Origin: Escherichia coli
GTDB taxonomy: Bacteria > Pseudomonadota > Gammaproteobacteria > Enterobacterales > Enterobacteriaceae
Length of the DNA stretch: 64,000 nt
Assembly (NCBI RefSeq): GCF_003018255.1
Contig: NZ_CP027440.1
Direction: 5' to 3' (one strand)
Positions 6,853-55,392 of this stretch are shown here, in pieces (the stretch's first letter is position 1; every line of letters starts with the position of its first letter). The notes below the pieces were generated by a model that saw only the letters and a list, made by a program, of their open reading frames with translations, was not told where the DNA came from and ran no database searches. The position numbers and the translations under genes are program-made.

Positions 6853-6985
6853 TTTGCTCCTGCCATAACGTGAAGAAGCAATGACCTGGTGGTCCGTGAC
6901 TTCCCTACGCTGGCATTATCCAGATCAGGTGATACGGGTATTTCTCAGCCTTCACAAAGAAGGGCACCCCGAGTCGTTTGGTTGC
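6853..6985 (-). promoter_or_regulatory. TPP (THI-box) riboswitch in the thiM leader
   Basis: Minus-strand sequence contains CTGAGAAATACCCGTATCACCTGATCTGGATAATGCCAGCGTAGGGAAGTCACGG, which matches the classical E. coli thiM TPP aptamer, immediately 5' of thiM. Confidence 0.85.
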
Positions 6986-25889: not shown

Positions 25890-25979
25890 TTACTTCAACA
25901 AATCAATCAACCGTAACAGAGCCACTAATAGCTCCAGTACAGCAATGAGCACGGTTAACTTTTGTGTCAGCGTGTCCAT
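25890..25979 (-). CDS. zorO: Type I toxin small hydrophobic peptide, 29 aa (ZorO-like)
   Basis: Minus-strand ATG..TAA encodes MDTLTQKLTVLIAVLELLVALLRLIDLLK; AAGGAG SD 5 nt upstream; long 5' UTR; flanking hairpin terminator; too short for the ORF track. Confidence 0.7.
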   Translation of the reverse strand: MDTLTQKLTVLIAVLELLVALLRLIDLLK

Positions 25980-26217: not shown

Positions 26218-26300
26218 GTTGAGATGCCATGTTGCACTATCAGTAACTTAACATCAAAGTAGTAAATAAAAGAACCTGCCTCACCAGCAGGTTCTTTTAT
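26218..26300 (+). ncRNA. orzO: Divergent antitoxin sRNA (OrzO-like), about 80 nt
   Basis: Consensus-like promoter TTGCAA-17-TATAAT (26183..26211), then a transcript ending at hairpin gaacctgc-ctcaccagc-gcaggttc plus T-run; 5' end gttgagatgccatgttgcact is complementary to the toxin 5' UTR (26053..26073). Confidence 0.6.
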
Positions 26301-26497: not shown

Positions 26498-26587
26498 TTA
26501 CTTCAACAAATCAATCAACCGTAACAGAGCCACTAATAGCTCCAGTACAGCAATGAGCACGGTTAACTTTTGTGTCAGCGTGTCCAT
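26498..26587 (-). CDS. zorP: Type I toxin small hydrophobic peptide, 29 aa, second copy (ZorP-like)
   Basis: Coding sequence identical to copy 1 (same 29-aa peptide), same SD and terminator hairpin. Confidence 0.7.
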   Translation of the reverse strand: MDTLTQKLTVLIAVLELLVALLRLIDLLK

Positions 26588-26825: not shown

Positions 26826-26908
26826 GTTGGTACGAAATGTTGCACAATCAGCAAGTTAGCGTCATTGTAGTAAATAAAAGAACCTGCCTCACCAGCAGGT
26901 TTTTTTAT
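26826..26908 (+). ncRNA. orzP: Divergent antitoxin sRNA, second copy (OrzP-like)
   Basis: Promoter TTGCAA-17-TATAAT (26791..26819); 5' segment gttggtacgaaatgttgcaca is complementary to the copy-2 toxin UTR (26661..26681); same terminator hairpin. Confidence 0.6.
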
Positions 26909-38070: not shown

Positions 38071-38178
38071 ATGCGCATAGCTAAAATTGGGGTCATCGCC
38101 CTGTTCCTGTTTATGGCGTTAGGCGGAATTGGTGGCGTCATGCTCGCAGGTTATACCTTTATTTTGCGTGCTGGCTGA
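38071..38178 (+). CDS. yohO: Small single-TM membrane peptide, 35 aa
   Basis: ATG preceded by TAAGGAG; encodes [35 protein letters not shown]; below the ORF-track cutoff; 3' end overlaps convergent yehW. Confidence 0.6.
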
Positions 38179-47264: not shown

Positions 47265-47437
47265 GATGAGCATTCAGATAGTGGTTCACGCGCACGGGTT
47301 GCGCACCGCCGGAGTAAGGATTTACTGAGGCTAGCGACGCCATCATAACGAGCAAAAAGTGCGATCGTCAAAGAAGAATCGTGAGGAAATGCTGCATTGC
47401 TGACATTTACGCCAGCAATGCAGCGCAAAAGAACTTT

Positions 47438-48025
47438 CTAGAACAAACGATAACCGTAGCCCCATAGTATAACGGTAAGGGCGAGCAGCACTTCCAGCAC
47501 CAGCACGCCTATCGCCAGTGTCGAACTGGAGAAGCTAAGTCCTTCCTCTTTGTTGATATTCAGGAAGCTCGGAATACCGAGATACAGCAGGTAGCCGGTG
47601 TAAAACAGCGCCACCGTGCCGACCAGCGCACACAACCAGACCAGCGGGTAAAGCGCCACCAGACCGCTTAAAAACAGCGGAGTTGCAACGTAGCCCGCGA
47701 AGACCATGCAGTGCGCAAGTGACGGACGCTGCGGATAATTACGCGCCATCCACCAGATGACCCGCCCCATCACCGCAACCCCAGCCAGCATAACGCCGTA
47801 AAACAAGACAGCCAGCGCCAGTCCGGTAAACCAGGATAACTTCAGGATAGTGCCATCGCCAAAATTCCAGCCAATCTGTGTAGTGCCAATGAAGGCGCAA
47901 ATCACCGGAATCGCCGCCATCAGCAAAACGTGGTGGGTGTAATGGTGAGAAATCGTTTCGTTTTCGCGATTAATCACCTGCATTTCACGATCGGGATGGG
48001 AAAACAGTCCCCAGACATGGCTCAT
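47438..48025 (-). CDS. yohC: Inner-membrane protein (Yip1 family)
   Basis: Multi-TM ORF; start set at an internal Met for 195 aa; K-12 order. Confidence 0.7.
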   Translation of the reverse strand: MSHVWGLFSHPDREMQVINRENETISHHYTHHVLLMAAIPVICAFIGTTQIGWNFGDGTILKLSWFTGLALAVLFYGVMLAGVAVMGRVIWWMARNYPQRPSLAHCMVFAGYVATPLFLSGLVALYPLVWLCALVGTVALFYTGYLLYLGIPSFLNINKEEGLSFSSSTLAIGVLVLEVLLALTVILWGYGYRLF

Positions 48026-48194
48026 ACCGCCCCCTTGTTGTGAGTTCATGAACCTGACAGTTCAAGTATAAGTCAGCTTGTGATTATTTTTTGTTCGCTC
48101 ATGTAATTTGCACCGTCTGATGTACGTCCTTTTTCAGCGTGAACTATTCACAGGGTGTATGCTTACAGGCAAGCAAAGGGAGACAGACTGGCCT

Positions 48195-48773
48195 ATGGAT
48201 CTCAATACACTCATCTCACAATATGGTTATGCCGCGCTGGTGATCGGTAGCCTGGCGGAAGGTGAAACCGTGACTTTGCTGGGAGGCGTTGCGGCACATC
48301 AGGGGCTATTAAAGTTCCCGCTGGTGGTACTTTCTGTGGCGCTTGGCGGCATGATTGGCGACCAGGTGCTTTATCTGTGCGGGCGGCGCTTTGGCGGCAA
48401 GCTATTACGCCGTTTCTCGAAACATCAGGATAAAATTGAGCGGGCGCAGAAACTTATCCAACGCCATCCGTATCTGTTTGTCATTGGTACGCGTTTTATG
48501 TATGGCTTTAGGGTGATTGGCCCGACGCTGATTGGTGCCAGCCAGCTGCCGCCGAAAATCTTTCTGCCGCTGAATATTCTCGGCGCATTTGCCTGGGCGT
48601 TGATTTTTACCACTATCGGTTATGCTGGTGGTCAGGTGATTGCGCCGTGGTTGCACAATCTCGACCAGCATTTGAAGCACTGGGTCTGGTTGATTCTGGC
48701 CGTGGTTCTGGTGGTAGGCGTGCGCTGGTGGCTGAAACGACGCGGGAAGAAAAAGCCGGATAATCAGGCGTAA
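48195..48773 (+). CDS. yohD: DedA-family inner-membrane protein
   Basis: Start set at the internal Met (MDLNTLISQYGYAALVIGSLAEGE) for 192 aa. Confidence 0.8.
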   Translation: MDLNTLISQYGYAALVIGSLAEGETVTLLGGVAAHQGLLKFPLVVLSVALGGMIGDQVLYLCGRRFGGKLLRRFSKHQDKIERAQKLIQRHPYLFVIGTRFMYGFRVIGPTLIGASQLPPKIFLPLNILGAFAWALIFTTIGYAGGQVIAPWLHNLDQHLKHWVWLILAVVLVVGVRWWLKRRGKKKPDNQA

Positions 48774-48794
48774 AGCAGTTGCCACAGATAAGCA

Positions 48795-48862
48795 TTCACG
48801 CCACATCCGGCACCGGATGTTCCATGCCTGATGCGACGCTGGCGTGTCTTATCTGGCCTAAC
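48795..48862. repeat. REP element(s), Z-type
   Basis: gcctgatgcgacgctggcgtgtcttatctggcctaac matches the REP Z-type consensus, with an adjacent partial REP. Confidence 0.55.
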
Positions 48863-48891
48863 CCATTGAAATAACCACGCACCTCACTGCG

Positions 48892-49653
48892 CTATTCTGG
48901 GTTGAACTGCGGATTCGCCAACATAAAGCCGCCATCCACTATCAACGACTGCCCGGTGGTGTAATTTGCGCCCTCCGAACAAAGCCATACCACCAGGCTG
49001 GCAATCTCATGCGTTGTGCCAAAACGTCGCAAGGGAATCGAAGGCTCCGCGTCGGGCCTCACATCGCTATCATCCATGCCGTTCATTGGCGTGGCGATCG
49101 CCCCAGGTGCGACTGCGTTCACCAAAATTTTATGCCTGACCAACTCCAGCGCCATTGCTTTGGTTAACCCGCCGAGCGCATGTTTAGCTGCTGTGTAAGC
49201 GCTGGCATCCGGCAGCGGCGTATGTTCATGCACCGACGTAATGTTGATGATGCGACCGCCCTGCCCTTGTTTCACCATCTGACGAGCCGCAATTTGCGAG
49301 CATAAGAATGCACCGTCGACATCAACGGTAAAAATCTTGCGCCACTCATCAAAAGCCATATCAAGAAACGGCGCTTTGGTCATTGCACCCGCATTATTCA
49401 CCAGCACATCGATGCGCCCCAGTCGTTGAATGAGTTTCTCCAGCGCCTGCGCACCTTCTGACAGTTTACCGAGATCCAGCTGCACGATCTCCGCACGTGC
49501 GCCGTGGCTAACCACCTCACGCGCAGTATCTTTTGCCCCTTCTTCATCAGAGTGCCAGGTAATGCCAATATCAAACCCCTGCTGCGCCAGTAATAACGCG
49601 CACTCTTTGCCGATCCCCGAATCGGAGGCGGTAATTATCGCGACCTGTGCCAT
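48892..49653 (-). CDS. yohF: Short-chain dehydrogenase/reductase (SDR)
   Basis: Start set at the internal Met (MAQVAIITASDSGIGK, Rossmann motif) for 253 aa; catalytic YxxxK (YTAAKHA). Confidence 0.85.
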   Translation of the reverse strand: MAQVAIITASDSGIGKECALLLAQQGFDIGITWHSDEEGAKDTAREVVSHGARAEIVQLDLGKLSEGAQALEKLIQRLGRIDVLVNNAGAMTKAPFLDMAFDEWRKIFTVDVDGAFLCSQIAARQMVKQGQGGRIINITSVHEHTPLPDASAYTAAKHALGGLTKAMALELVRHKILVNAVAPGAIATPMNGMDDSDVRPDAEPSIPLRRFGTTHEIASLVVWLCSEGANYTTGQSLIVDGGFMLANPQFNPE

Positions 49654-49705
49654 CGAGTTCTCCACTTAACGCTGAATAAATGTTAAGTATAGAAGGCGCA
49701 TATCA

Positions 49706-51142
49706 TCAGCGTTTGTAACCTCCGCCCAGCGCACCGGTGAGTTGAATGGAGGCATCCAGCCACTGCCCTTGCAATAACAGGCCATTGGCCCGCTCACGCA
49801 GCGCGGGGATTCTGGCTTCGCTGACGCGGGAACCAGCAATGATGCCCGCGTTAAAGCGCGCCTGCGCAAGACCTACCACACGCAAGGCATCGTGCTCAAT
49901 TTGCGCCTGATGCTGGTTTTTCTCCGCCAGTGTCTGAACCTGGCTGGCCGCCCGCGCCACGTCATTTACCGCTTCAACCACCGCTTTGTTGTAGCTGGCG
50001 ATAGACAAGTTGCTTTCGGCTTTTGCGATATCGAGATTGGCGTTAAGACGACCACTATCGAAAATGGGTAGCGTCAGGCCTGCCGTAACGCCCATTTGCT
50101 GCGCGGAATGACGGAACAGATCGCTTAAGTGCAACGCATCCTGTTGCAGAAAGGCCATCAGGTTGATGTCAGGATAAAATGCCGCTTTTGCCGCATCAAT
50201 AGTGCTTAACGATGACTCAACGTACCAGTGCGCCGCCTGCAAATCTGCCCGCCGGGCCAGTAAGGAGTACCCGAGTTCATCAGGAAGCTGACTTGCCACT
50301 TTCGGCAACGCGACCGGTTTAAGCTTCAATGACTTTGTCTGGTGGTTGGTGAGCGCACTTAACCGTGCCTCAATAATTTTCATTTTCCCCGCGACATCGT
50401 TGAGCTGCTGCCGGGTTTTGCTGGCATTAATATCGGTTTCCACACCTTCAACTGAAGAAGTAATCCCGTTCTGATATAGCTGGCGATCGGTCGCGATAAT
50501 GGTGTTCTGCTCTTTTTCGATTTGCTGCAAGACCGTGTTTAACGCCGCCTGGGTTTGCCACTCCCAGTACAGGCGGGCTACGCTGCCAGCCAGCAATTGG
50601 CAGGTTTGCTCGCGTTCCGCCGCCCGTGCTTTAACCGTACCGAGGCGAGCAGTAACCTCCGCCCGATTCTTTCCCCAGATATCGAGATGCCAGCCCGCCG
50701 TTAAGCCAAAAGTACCGTTGGTGTACCACGGACCGGTCGTACCTGCGGCAGGATCGTTCAGAGCAAACGGCCCCATTAACCCTTCTGCAGACATTTTTTG
50801 CCGCTCCATATCCGCAGAAAAGTCGATCTGCGGACCATCCTGAGTGGCAACTGCCTTCGCCTGGGCTTCAGCCAGCTGAATGCGCTGTTCAGCCACCTGC
50901 ATATCCGGTGCGTTCTGTAGTGCGTTATTAATTAAGGAAGTGAGTTGATTATCGTGATACTCCAGCCACCATTGGCTGTCTGGCCAACCATTTTTCAGCG
51001 CCGTGGGTAATACGGTGTCAACTTGTGCAGCGGGCGTTTGCTGGCTTAACGCCTGGCGGGTTTCATGCATAGGTGCACACCCGGCCAGCATCAGTAACAG
51101 CGGAAAACAGGCGATGGCGGGATAAAAGGAATCACGATTCAT
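49706..51142 (-). CDS. mdtQ: Outer-membrane efflux lipoprotein (NodT/OprM family); intact here
   Basis: Start set at the internal Met (MNRDSFYPAIACFPLLLMLAGC, lipobox) for 478 aa, uninterrupted. Confidence 0.8.
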   Translation of the reverse strand: MNRDSFYPAIACFPLLLMLAGCAPMHETRQALSQQTPAAQVDTVLPTALKNGWPDSQWWLEYHDNQLTSLINNALQNAPDMQVAEQRIQLAEAQAKAVATQDGPQIDFSADMERQKMSAEGLMGPFALNDPAAGTTGPWYTNGTFGLTAGWHLDIWGKNRAEVTARLGTVKARAAEREQTCQLLAGSVARLYWEWQTQAALNTVLQQIEKEQNTIIATDRQLYQNGITSSVEGVETDINASKTRQQLNDVAGKMKIIEARLSALTNHQTKSLKLKPVALPKVASQLPDELGYSLLARRADLQAAHWYVESSLSTIDAAKAAFYPDINLMAFLQQDALHLSDLFRHSAQQMGVTAGLTLPIFDSGRLNANLDIAKAESNLSIASYNKAVVEAVNDVARAASQVQTLAEKNQHQAQIEHDALRVVGLAQARFNAGIIAGSRVSEARIPALRERANGLLLQGQWLDASIQLTGALGGGYKR

Positions 51143-51365
51143 GGGGGAATAATCAGGTAAGAAAAGGTGCGCGGAGATTACCGTGTGTTGCGATATATTT
51201 TTTAGTTTCGCGTGGCAATACATCAGTAGCAATAAAACGACATATCCAGAAAAATATACACTAAGTGAATGATATCTTCCTATTTATCTTAATCGTTTAT
51301 GGATAGCGGCAAAGGGCTTCGTTTTTTCCTATACTTATTCAGCACTCACAAATAAAGGAACGCCA

Positions 51366-51449
51366 ATGAAAATTATACTCTGGGCTGTATTGATTATTTT
51401 CCTGATTGGGCTACTGGTGGTGACTGGCGTATTTAAGATGATATTTTAA
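51366..51449 (+). CDS. yohP: Small membrane peptide, 27 aa
   Basis: AAGGA RBS then ATG; encodes MKIILWAVLIIFLIGLLVVTGVFKMIF; below the ORF-track cutoff. Confidence 0.6.
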   Translation: MKIILWAVLIIFLIGLLVVTGVFKMIF

Positions 51450-51499
51450 AATTAATTAATGTCATCAGATCCGAAAATAACGAGAATATTTCAGTCTCT

Positions 51500-51770
51500 C
51501 ATCCTGTTGCGCTCCTGTCATGTGCATTGCTTCATATAATCACTGGCGCAAGGAGCGCGCAGGGGGCGGCCAATCGCCGCCGCCCCCTGCACCCCCGGGC
51601 TCTGGCGAACAAAATCGCCGCTGCGCGGTGCCCTCGGCTTATCCCTTACGGCTACCGGGTCGGGCGCGAGGTAACATCCCTGTAAAACGCGCCCTCAGCC
51701 CACATCCATGTGGGCTGCCCCGGCCTTCAGGGAACGCCTCGGCGATTTTGACGCCACCAAACAACCGTGC
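51500..51770. other. GC-rich, highly structured intergenic element with nested inverted repeats
   Basis: Perfect 12-bp stem gcagggggcggc/gccgccccctgc (51559..51590), palindrome cagcccacat/atgtgggctg (about 51697..51718), long-range pair caaaatcgccg/cggcgattttg (about 51610 and 51740); composition contrasts with the AT-rich flanks. Confidence 0.4.
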
Positions 51771-51821
51771 GGCCTATTGATAAAGAGCTAACACATTGTC
51801 AAAAAACATCACTATGGTTTC

Positions 51822-52769
51822 TTAGAGTTTCTCGATATCAATTGCCTGAATAGCCCTTGCAATATCAGGGGAATTATTCAACACCCGAACATGCTGAAAT
51901 AATTCCGTTGCTTCATCGTATTCTTTACGCAAATAACTCAACCACTGTTTAATCCGCGCAACGTGATATAACCCGGTATCGCCCTGCTTTTCCAGACGGG
52001 TATATTTTTGCAGCAAAGCAACTACCTCCGGCCACGGCATTCGCGGTTCGTTATATTTTACCACCCGGCTCAGGTTGGGAATATTGAGCGCCCCGCGACC
52101 AATCATCACTGCGTCGCATCCGCTGATCGTCATGCATTGTTGCGCACTCTGCCAGTCCCAGATTTCACCGTTGGCAATCACAGGAATATTCAACCGCTGG
52201 CGAATCTCGCCAATCGCCTGCCAGTCAATATGCTCCGCGCGGTAACCCTGCTCTTTTGTCCGCCCATGTACTACCAGCTCCGTAGCGCCAGCCTGTTGCA
52301 CCGCATCGGCGATTTCAAATTTCTTCTCACCGCTGTCCCAGCCCAGACGCACTTTTACGCTGACGGGCAAATGCGCCGGTACAGCTTCGCGCATCGCTTT
52401 TGCACCCTGATAGATGAGTTCAGGATCTTTGAGTAACGTCGCCCCACCGCCGCTACCGTTAACCGTTTTCGACGGGCAGCCGCAATTGAGATCCACGCCC
52501 CAGGAACCTAACTCGACCGCACGGGCGGCATTCTCTGCCAGCCATTGTGGGAACTGACCTAACAACTGCACGCGCACCAGCGTACCGGCTGGTGTCCGGC
52601 TGGCGTTTTGTAGCTCAGGGCAAATGCGATGAAAGACTTTTACCGGCAGCAGTTGATCCACCACGCGGACAAACTCGGTGATGCACAGATCGTAGTCGTT
52701 AACTTCGGTCAGCAATTCACGCACCAGAGAGTCGAGTACACCCTCCATCGGTGCCAGTAACACACGCAT
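51822..52769 (-). CDS. dusC: tRNA-dihydrouridine synthase C
   Basis: 315-aa ORF, N-terminus [22 protein letters not shown] (Dus-family TIM barrel). Confidence 0.9.
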
Positions 52770-52830
52770 ATCATCACCCGCAAAAAAATGAGGCGCTATG
52801 TTAGCGCCTATGGTCAGCGGATTAAAGTAC

Positions 52831-54024
52831 TCAGCGTGGTTGCAAACAGTTATCTTCTTTCCAGCCGTACAGCCACTCCATGCCGCGGTAAAACTCTGCC
52901 TGCGATTTCCCTTTCCACAACAGGTTACGTACCTGGCGCTCTACTCCTGCGGCATGATAAACCCGCCCCATTTCACGGGTCGACCAGACGATGCGCGCGG
53001 TGCGCGGAATACGTACCGACTCATACAGCGCAAAGGCTTGTGCCGCATCACCCTCACACTGCGCCAGCGCCTTACCCAGTGTTACCGCGTCTTCCAGCGC
53101 CATACAGGCACCCTGCGCCATATACTGCGCCACCGGATGGGCCGCATCGCCCACCAGCGTAATGCGCTTCGTTCCCCACTTCGCTACCGGTTCACGGTCG
53201 GCGGTTGACCAGCGTCGCCAGGAGGTCGGTTTATCCAGCATCTGGCGCGGACGGGGGTGAATCCCTTCAAAGTAAGAGAGCACTTCCTCTTTACTGCCAT
53301 CCTTCACGCCCCACTCTTCCTGCTGGCGGCTGTGGAATGTCACCACCAGGTTATACTGCTTGCCGCCACGTAAAGGGTAATGCACCAAGTGACAGCACGG
53401 CCCCGCCCACAGTACTGGTGCGTTAATGCGCAAATCTTCCGGCATATCGGCACAATCGATAACCGCACGGTAGACCACATGCCCGGTGACACGCGGCGCA
53501 TCGCCCAATAAGCTCTGGCGCACCACTGACTTCACGCCGTCACAGCCAATCAGAATATCGCCGATCCAACTATTGCCGCGATCGTCGAAAACGGTGACAT
53601 CGTCTTCTGTCTCGCGAATATCCACGACGTTGGTGGAGGTGTGATATTCCACGTCCGGATGCGTCAGTACCGCTTCCCACACCGAGGCATGAATATCAAC
53701 CCGGTGGATCACCGCGTAAGGGCCGCCGAAATGATCGCGAAAGGCCTGACCGGTTTCAATGCGCACCACTTCTTCGGCGTTTACCGCATCCATCATGGTG
53801 ATGTGATCGGTGAATACCGCGCGCTGGCGGGCGATTTCACCGACGCCGAGGCTATCCAACGCCGAAAACGCATTTGGCCCCAACTGGATACCTGCGCCAA
53901 TCTCACCGATCTCATGCGCCTTTTCCAGCAGCACCACTTTGATCCCCTGGCGGGCCAGTGACAACGCAGTTGCCGCACCGCCGATCCCGCCTCCCACAAT
54001 TACTGCGCGTGTCACTTTAGTCAT
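52831..54024 (-). CDS. FAD-dependent aromatic monooxygenase, likely 3-hydroxybenzoate 6-hydroxylase (MhbM-like)
   Basis: 397 aa; dinucleotide-binding motif [20 protein letters not shown] and GDAAH motif; last gene of a gentisate-pathway operon. Confidence 0.8.
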
Positions 54025-54038
54025 TATGGTTCTCCTGG

Positions 54039-54686
54039 TCAGGCTGAAATTTTATCTTGTTGATTTTCTGGCGCTGCGGCAATGAACGCTGGCAGCTGCG
54101 TGCAGGCGTCGTACACCGCTTTGCAGCGCGGATACCCGCTCAGATCGCAGTTCATACGTAGCGCGTTCGCCCACTGTGGAACAAGGCAGCAATCTGCCAG
54201 CGTCGGCGTCTCGCCCACACAAAATTGCCCCGACTGGCTCTGGCGCAGTAGCTGTTCCACCGCGCTTAACCCTTGCTGGATCCAGTGCGCATACCAGCGT
54301 TTTTTATCTTCTTCACTGACGTTCAGCTCTTCGGTCAGGTAGCGCAGCACGCGTAGGTTATTCAATGGATGAATATCGCAGGCGATGGCATAGACAATTT
54401 CCAGCACCTTGTTGCGGGCCGGTTCTTCCTGCGGCATCAGCGGAACTTGCGGGTAGTGACTCTCCAGCCAGTCAATAATCGCCAGCGATTGTCCGAGTGA
54501 TTCGCCCTCGTCGGTCAGCAGCGTCGGCACCAGCCCGACCGGATTCATCCGCCGGTAGGCCAGTTCGTTTTGCTGACCAATGCGGATATTCACCCCTTCG
54601 GTCTGGTAATCGATACCCTTCAGCGCCAGCGCAATGCGCACCCGGTAAGACGCTGAACTATTAAAAAAACTGTACAGCTTCATCAT
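54039..54686 (-). CDS. Maleylpyruvate isomerase (GST-zeta / maleylacetoacetate isomerase family; MhbI-like)
   Basis: Start set at the ATG giving MMKLYSFFNSSASYRVRIALALKG (GAGGTG SD); the track start is a TTG. Confidence 0.75.
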   Translation of the reverse strand: MMKLYSFFNSSASYRVRIALALKGIDYQTEGVNIRIGQQNELAYRRMNPVGLVPTLLTDEGESLGQSLAIIDWLESHYPQVPLMPQEEPARNKVLEIVYAIACDIHPLNNLRVLRYLTEELNVSEEDKKRWYAHWIQQGLSAVEQLLRQSQSGQFCVGETPTLADCCLVPQWANALRMNCDLSGYPRCKAVYDACTQLPAFIAAAPENQQDKISA

Positions 54687-54690
54687 CACC

Positions 54691-55392
54691 TCAGACAATC
54701 TTCACCGCGATAGGCGTTAAGCCCTCGACGTTGCCCGTGATCACATCACCTTTGACTACTGAGCCAACCCCTTCCGGCGTACCGGTAAAGATTAGATCGC
54801 CCGGTTGCAGTTCAAAGAAGCCTGACAGGTAGCTGATGGTTTCATTCACTGACCAGATGAGATGACGAATATCGCTGCGCTGATGATCTTCGCCGTTAAC
54901 CTGTAACCAGATAGGTGCGTTATCAATACCGCCAGTTTCGCTGGCTTTGTGCAGCGGCGCGATGGGGGCCGAGAGATCGAACGCTTTGCCGATTTCCCAC
55001 GGGCGGCCCATCTGGCGCATTTCCATTTGACGGTCACGGCGAGTCATATCAAGACCCGTGGCATAACCCCAGACATATTCATGGGCGTTTTCCAGCGGGA
55101 TATCACTGCCTTTTTTACCAATCGCCACCACCAGTTCAATTTCATAATGGTAGTTATCGGTCTGCGCCGGATACGGCAGCGCCAGCGTTTCGCCAGCGGC
55201 AACCGGAACAATGGCATCCGCCGGTTTGCAGAAGAAGAATGGCGGTTCACGATCCGGATCAAAGCCCATTTCGCGGGCGTGGGCGGCATAGTTACGTCCG
55301 ACGCAGTAAACGCGGCGTACGGGGAATTGTTCATCACTGCCAACAACCGGTACGGTAACGGGCGCTTGTGGTTCGAATACGTATTGAGTCAT
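54691..55392 (-). CDS. Fumarylpyruvate hydrolase (fumarylacetoacetate hydrolase family; MhbH-like)
   Basis: 233-aa FAH-fold ORF between the dioxygenase and isomerase genes. Confidence 0.8.

Follow-up and report, generated by a model that had tools for sequence, protein, structure and literature searches.

The DNA analysed here, referred to as the window, is a stretch of 64,000 nucleotides from Escherichia coli (NCBI RefSeq assembly GCF_003018255.1, contig NZ_CP027440.1), with positions counted from its first letter. An earlier note, made from the letters alone, had singled out a short open reading frame (ORF) that falls below the usual ORF cut-offs. The features at and around this ORF are as follows:

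49706-51142, minus strand: mdtQ, intact, encoding 478 aa from an ATG at 51142
51328-51337, plus strand: putative -10 element of yohP, CCTATACTTA, assigned from cross-genus conservation
51355-51359, plus strand: Shine-Dalgarno sequence AAGGA, six bases before the yohP ATG
51366-51449, plus strand: yohP coding sequence, 27 codons and TAA, assigned from the translation, RefSeq and family profiles
51450-51504, plus strand: yohP 3' flank, the poorly conserved tail of a repeat cassette, assigned from strain comparison
51505-51780, sense strand minus: 276-nt core of a GC-rich structured repeat, unannotated, within a cassette spanning 51450-51831
51822-52769, minus strand: dusC, convergent with yohP

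The ORF starts with ATG and its translation gives the 27-aa peptide MKIILWAVLIIFLIGLLVVTGVFKMIF, followed by TAA. RefSeq names it 'small membrane protein YohP' (WP_000691708.1; b4679 in K-12), uses the name yohP in further E. coli genomes too, and places the gene between mdtQ and dusC. The peptide passes the NCBIfam equivalog model NF011345 with 67.3 bits (cut-off 58), aligned over residues 1-27 of 27, and the Pfam model PF25659 with 50.6 bits (cut-off 27). Exactly this peptide is recorded under the name YohP in at least 1000 contigs and it is identical to YohP of K-12; over the 307 nt running from the mdtQ start to the yohP stop, the window differs from K-12 at three positions, all located upstream of the -10. 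Residues 3-23 of the peptide form one transmembrane helix that includes G15 and G21, with K2 and K24 on either side of it. With a GRAVY of 2.47 and an uncharged core of 21 residues, its hydropathy ranks highest among the 422 ATG ORFs of 20-40 aa in the window (mean GRAVY -0.09, sd 0.66). The U content reaches 41% in the yohP coding sequence and 74% at its second codon positions; nearby genes have 21-23%. The ORF corresponds to yohP, which belongs to the core genes of Escherichia and encodes a 27-residue single-pass inner-membrane protein; the finding is already known, the gene having been annotated and experimentally studied before. The earlier note had therefore read correctly an ATG with AAGGA six bases upstream; the gene name that it proposed agrees with the RefSeq annotation and with both family models, its small membrane protein call is supported as well, and the GC-rich element that it mentioned does lie after the ORF. 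Another small membrane protein ORF that also falls under usual ORF cut-offs is found at 38071-38178 on the plus strand; it encodes 35 aa, is preceded by AAGGAG and matches the NCBIfam model 'protein YohO' with 80.1 bits (cut-off 57).

The mdtQ ATG (51142, minus strand) is divergent from yohP and 223 bp apart from it. Intact in the window strain, mdtQ is a 1436-nt frameshifted pseudogene in K-12. The convergent arrangement of yohP and dusC is kept in Escherichia, Salmonella and several Citrobacter, and mdtQ is also the divergent neighbour of yohP in Salmonella. In Citrobacter amalonaticus, a co-directional ORF of 249 aa that is not mdtQ, and that is putatively methyltransferase-like, ends just before yohP. 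The earlier note had described a divergent promoter region shared with mdtQ. The 223 bp geometry stands; as the sequences upstream are unrelated between genera and the C. amalonaticus neighbour is not mdtQ, this description fits the E. coli geometry only, and the conserved promoter is the putative sigma-S-type -10 of yohP. Directly beyond dusC (52831-54024 on the minus strand and onwards; fetched locus L001, 5732-8801) lies a gentisate-pathway cluster with genes for a 3-hydroxybenzoate 6-monooxygenase, a maleylacetoacetate isomerase, a fumarylacetoacetate hydrolase family protein and a gentisate 1,2-dioxygenase; K-12 has yohJ-yohK at this place. Two Rfam families scored above the gathering score elsewhere in the window, a TPP riboswitch at 6885-6981 on the minus strand (71.2 bits) and a Peptidase-S11 RNA motif at 47269-47349 on the minus strand (72.8 bits), the latter probably upstream of pbpG by gene order. 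Below the threshold (48.4 bits against 59.5), the nucleoid-associated RNA family naRNA4 was matched at 48754-48858 on the plus strand, probably between yohD and yohF.

When the flanks of the orthologues were aligned, upstream conservation was limited to about 40 nt comprising the CCTATACTTA block, a short leader and the Shine-Dalgarno sequence. The block is common to Escherichia, Salmonella, Citrobacter and Buttiauxella, and farther upstream the sequences are unrelated between genera. It contains TATACT at 51330-51335 with a C at -13, that is an extended -10 with no recognisable -35, situated about 30 nt before the yohP ATG. Sigma-S prefers a -10 of the form TATACT with a preceding C, and the conserved element is a putative promoter of the sigma-S type. 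A scan for sigma-70 promoters returned none at the yohP -10 region, as expected for a -35 that is degenerate or absent. Transcription would start at about 51342-51345. The Shine-Dalgarno site is retained as AGGA, GGGA or GGAG at the same distance from the ATG in the aligned orthologues. In the mRNA predicted from about 51342, the fold does not depart from that of shuffled sequences (z = 0.11) and the Shine-Dalgarno sequence is unpaired. At the other end of the gene, no canonical intrinsic terminator was found at 51450-51504 in a terminator scan of this strain; the yohP stop of Salmonella and Citrobacter is directly followed by an inverted repeat rich in GC, read by eye as a terminator-like hairpin. 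In Salmonella, the 3xFLAG-tagged product of the orthologue STnc1330/yohP reaches high amounts in stationary phase, and hardly any of it is detected in an rpoS mutant; its promoter has canonical sigma-S -10 features, and the transcript was first catalogued as a non-coding sRNA (PMC5437024). The conserved -10, taken with the results from Salmonella, leads us to infer that yohP depends on sigma-S in E. coli as well.

To sample orthologues, 80 species-representative loci were fetched via the neighbouring DusC protein, which makes the sampling independent of YohP conservation. A YohP homologue was present at 2.5 kb or less from dusC in 20 of the 80 species loci, and none was found within this distance in the other 60. 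The 20 carriers belong to Escherichia, Salmonella, Citrobacter (including a MAG labelled Raoultella), Buttiauxella and Franconibacter, with one Enterobacter and one Yersinia. Together with the window and K-12, these loci gave 17 distinct DNA sequences and only 8 protein variants. Among the 17 sequences, substitutions were distributed as 14, 3 and 24 at codon positions 1, 2 and 3, with a mean pS of 0.60 and a mean pN of 0.06. The ratio pN/pS was 0.10 in the yohP frame compared to 0.59 and 4.2 in the other two; likewise, dN/dS over eight genera was about 0.05-0.10 in the yohP frame, with values of 0.5 and 4.8 in the two other frames. The comparison with the Buttiauxella orthologue alone gave 18.5 synonymous and 2.5 non-synonymous differences. 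Across the 8 protein variants near dusC, 16 of the 27 residues are invariant, and K2, W6, G15, T20, G21 and K24 are constant in all variants collected, including those from Yersinia, Pantoea, Erwinia and Rouxiella. Variants from Yersinia, Pantoea and Rouxiella bear the name YohP in the databases, and their sequences recur in Erwinia. By these sequence comparisons, purifying selection acts on the YohP protein, and in this frame only.

Within E. coli, a 171-bp query around the ORF found yohP in 5422 of 5426 complete genomes, always on the chromosome and with a median of one copy per genome (maximum two); this nucleotide search found none on plasmids. A tblastn search of plasmids and phages with the peptide gave no match, a result that we regard as uninformative since the low-complexity filter of BLAST probably masks the hydrophobic query. 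The gene is dispensable in nature. The type strain of the sister species Escherichia albertii (NBRC 107761; L007 1133-1240) is a case of natural yohP loss: yohP has been deleted together with the core of the adjoining repeat, and what survives is a small piece of yohP, tggcggtgactgg, along with the tail at the 3' end of the repeat. Within E. coli, the rare strain CFSAN061769 (L084 1874-3035) has lost both mdtQ and yohP beside a frameshifted transposase gene of the IS5 family (ISKpn26-like).

Published experiments have characterized the protein from its synthesis to its effects. Chromosomal SPA-tagged YohP increases in stationary phase, in minimal medium and at low oxygen; the induction by SDS/EDTA and H2O2 that had been described earlier was not reproduced (PMC12719787). 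YohP is recognized post-translationally by SRP and inserted via SecYEG or YidC; its topology is mainly N-out/C-in, and the formation of SDS-resistant dimers requires G15 (PMC7549839). The yohP mRNA is directed to the membrane by the U-rich sequence that codes for the peptide, in a manner that depends on U content (PMC10066597), and is translatable on SecY or YidC without SRP (PMC10066597, PMC12648545). At native-like stationary-phase levels, YohP lowers membrane potential and fluidity; its production induces PspA/PspC and (p)ppGpp, cuts protein synthesis and condenses the nucleoid like TisB, and its expression results in slower growth and a sublethal depolarization, with no killing (PMC12719787, PMC12542507). 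Deletion of yohP increases the sensitivity to ciprofloxacin and to oxidative stress without a growth defect (PMC12719787, PMC12542507); it changes the proteome little and gives no growth phenotype under inducing conditions (PMC12719787). The authors name as a limitation that most of the physiological data were obtained by expressing YohP prematurely from a plasmid during exponential phase (PMC12719787). Translation and amino-acid conservation, on which the earlier note had made its reading depend, are both observed: the chromosomal SPA tag in E. coli and the 3xFLAG tag in Salmonella show the protein, and pN/pS in frame is 0.10.

The ORF, its ribosome-binding site, its family, the selection acting on it, the conserved -10 and the lack of a conserved antisense partner or of a sequestered ribosome site were computed here, whilst the published experiments provide the evidence for translation, for dependence on sigma-S (in Salmonella), for the insertion pathway, for dimerization and for depolarization. 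We consider it likely that YohP is a sigma-S-timed, antitoxin-free, mild membrane toxin that pushes cells into a low-metabolism state. The transcript would carry a leader of roughly 20-25 nt that leaves the Shine-Dalgarno sequence open, and both the U-rich mRNA and the released peptide would reach the membrane. The peptide would do so post-translationally, from SRP/FtsY to SecYEG or YidC; by the alternative route, the mRNA would bind SecY or YidC without SRP. Once in the membrane, the helix would dimerize via G15, accumulate to about 1000 copies per cell and partly dissipate the membrane potential. What the analysis adds is that a genuine 27-codon gene is recognizable from raw sequence alone; the knowledge about yohP is unchanged by it.

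The earlier note had favoured a regulatory membrane peptide. In its most explicit form, YohP would modulate one specific larger membrane protein in the manner of MgrB, AcrZ or MgtS, and depolarization would be a side effect of overproduction. The size and single-helix build of YohP are the same as those of known regulators, and the invariant residues W6, G15, T20 and G21 would sit in or near a helix-helix interface. Moreover, full-length yohP was recovered three times in two-hybrid assays with RNase E constructs containing the membrane-targeting segment; this signal was weak, however, and according to the authors possibly a false positive that any transmembrane helix could drive (PMC13232886). 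No partner emerged from the studies of YohP physiology, and native stationary-phase levels of the protein sufficed for the effects (PMC12719787, PMC12542507). The gene yohP has its own promoter, is in no operon with a candidate target, and its neighbours differ between genera; mdtQ is divergent in E. coli and Salmonella and a pseudogene in K-12, and a partner may be encoded elsewhere in the genome. Modulation of a single target appears rather improbable to us. No partner has been established and the experiments show toxin-like effects (sublethal depolarization, the Psp response, ppGpp and nucleoid condensation, compared side by side with those of TisB), so that the preference for a regulator did not hold up; a regulatory peptide is possible, with the evidence pointing elsewhere. 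Judged by the published experiments, YohP has more in common with a mild membrane toxin that is timed by sigma-S and lacks an antitoxin than with a regulator that binds a partner.

The repeat next to yohP is a more unusual object than yohP itself. Its cassette occupies the space from the yohP stop codon to that of the convergent dusC and does not belong to yohP. The arrangement of the window is shared by about 61% of E. coli genomes, at least 80% of 51100-51900 being covered in 3304 of 5426, and many others match only to 51451, just past the yohP stop. In the genomes examined that are not of the window type, from E. coli, E. whittamii and one Escherichia clade strain, the same core is present in the opposite orientation. 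K-12 has the window orientation. The E. albertii fragment has the second one, which suggests that the second orientation is the older state. A further copy lies between aqpZ and lysO, and there too both orientations occur, depending on the strain. The core is found in 5425 of 5426 E. coli genomes, where it occupies a median of three places and always lacks an annotation. Up to 13 places were found in a Klebsiella pneumoniae chromosome (deposited as a plasmid), and the four Klebsiella copies that were fetched lie between unrelated genes. In K. pneumoniae strain 176 (L090 1045-1318 and 1482-1755), two tandem copies in the same orientation, about 170 bp apart, sit between a mechanosensitive channel gene and pcaC. 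A simple phase inversion was considered and is unlikely, the two orientation types differing by about 6-11% in the core and by much more in the flanks.

Thirteen copies of the repeat gave one consensus fold of -119 kcal/mol, in which 10 of 77 pairs are compensatory and few cells of the alignment are broken. A long closing stem holds two hairpins with the loops CAUGGAUG and CA(N)GGAYG and is followed by a 12-bp GC hairpin; in the last 3' stem, GCGCUCC(U) is paired with the AGGAGCGC motif just before an ATG. The 3' end thus has AGGAG paired into a stem, then ATG, and the downstream ORFs are not conserved between copies. The repeat resembles the Rfam family TwoAYGGAY, but with 30 bits against a gathering score of 43; every copy tested remained below this score and most copies had no match. 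A literature search under the classical E. coli repeat names gave nothing usable on the repeat.

In the window orientation, the sense strand of the repeat is directed towards the yohP stop codon. The plus-strand sequence following yohP folds strongly (z = -5.9) because the hairpins of the repeat are self-complementary. In E. coli the repeat probably determines the 3' end of yohP and, as it abuts the stop codon and varies in orientation by lineage, this end might be strain-specific. A bolder possibility is that the orientation of the repeat imposes a polymorphic, type I-like control on yohP, through co-transcription with the repeat sense RNA or through antisense RNA from dusC and the repeat. 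If so, one orientation would co-transcribe yohP and the repeat, and the window and K-12 orientation would send minus-strand transcripts into yohP. We regard such control as very unlikely.

Resemblance to a type I toxin had also been proposed by the earlier note, with the remark that there was no obvious cognate sRNA. Like the toxins of type I systems, YohP is a small hydrophobic membrane peptide and, as with TisB, it depolarizes the membrane and condenses the nucleoid. It could then be a type I toxin with an unrecognized antisense RNA, for instance transcripts that enter on the minus strand from dusC and from the structured repeat; the sense strand of this repeat is directed at the yohP 3' end in this strain. 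A promoter-like site on the minus strand (51465-51438, 10 of 12 matches to a sigma-70-like sequence) would indeed fire into yohP. As an antitoxin promoter, it was rejected: its -35 lies in the strain-variable flank, and this one site is below the 2.2 expected by chance from shuffled sequences. No Rfam antitoxin family was found near yohP, either at E<=1 over 48000-55000 or at the gathering score in the whole window. A match to the sRNA AgvB in the yohP 3' flank (51472-51532) reached 22.9 bits against a gathering score of 56 and was judged to be due to chance. The same Rfam scan provided a positive control, OrzO-P being detected twice on the plus strand, at 26225-26298 (90 bits) and at 26833-26906 (89 bits), which indicates that the antitoxin search works on this sequence. 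The corresponding toxin-like ORFs are:

25890-25979, minus strand: ZorO-like ORF, 29 aa, hydrophobic, MDTLTQKLTVLIAVLELLVALLRLIDLLK
26498-26587, minus strand: ZorO-like ORF, 29 aa, identical to the preceding one

For each of them, an OrzO-P gene is located on the opposite strand, about 245 nt upstream, so that two tandem type I units are present. The 29-aa peptide, for which no NCBIfam model was found, is one that we take to be ZorO.

The surroundings of yohP differ from this arrangement. Its flanks are unrelated between genera on both sides and the 3' flank varies even within E. coli, so any antisense promoter would not be conserved either. As far as the aligned sequences go, no conserved sequence at yohP is available to encode an antisense RNA. 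A long structured leader hiding the ribosome-binding site is absent, judging from the fold predicted from the inferred start: the leader is short, the ribosome site is open, and the gene is present in single copy. Furthermore, YohP reaches about 1000 copies per cell without killing. The likeness to type I toxins is therefore real at the level of the peptide, the type I architecture is absent, and the remark on the cognate sRNA agrees with the blank Rfam result beside yohP and with the lack of flank conservation across genera. A hidden type I system at yohP is, in our judgement, highly improbable.

Two further readings concern the coding capacity itself. The yohP transcript (STnc1330) might be mainly a base-pairing regulatory RNA with the ORF being secondary; it was first catalogued as an sRNA in Salmonella and is short, abundant and sigma-S dependent. 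However, the peptide stays constant although synonymous sites have almost reached saturation (pS 0.6-0.98), which indicates selection on the protein and not on the RNA sequence and argues against a constrained RNA function of the coding region. In addition, tagged protein is made in large amounts, and the mRNA fold is no more stable than that of shuffled sequences. We would give a primarily regulatory RNA hardly any weight. That yohP is a chance ORF with a chance ribosome-binding site, as its mere 27 codons under the usual cut-offs might suggest, has next to no probability and is already refuted by frame-specific purifying selection over eight genera, by curated family models and by published protein detection.

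The mild, sigma-S-timed toxin that we favour can be set against the systems that it resembles. The locus belongs to the YohP family (b4679, NF011345, PF25659, STnc1330), with the same neighbours mdtQ and dusC and, here, the same -10 and Shine-Dalgarno sequence; compared to K-12 YohP, the gene itself is unchanged. With TisB and the ZorO-like/OrzO-P units, YohP has in common a short hydrophobic inner-membrane helix, and with TisB, according to the literature, the loss of membrane potential together with nucleoid condensation. Unlike type I toxins, yohP is without a recognized antisense RNA, a long structured leader and a sequestered ribosome site; it is a single-copy gene with a putative sigma-S-type promoter, and its product is tolerated at about 1000 copies per cell. 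MgrB, AcrZ and MgtS/MgtU belong to the same size class and share the single-helix architecture, but they have defined protein partners, whereas none is established for YohP. Finally, YncL is a sigma-S dependent small membrane protein of 31 aa. Its locus differs from that of yohP and we know of no sequence relationship between the two proteins; YncL is induced in the same conditions as YohP and is reported to give the same depolarization and nucleoid condensation.
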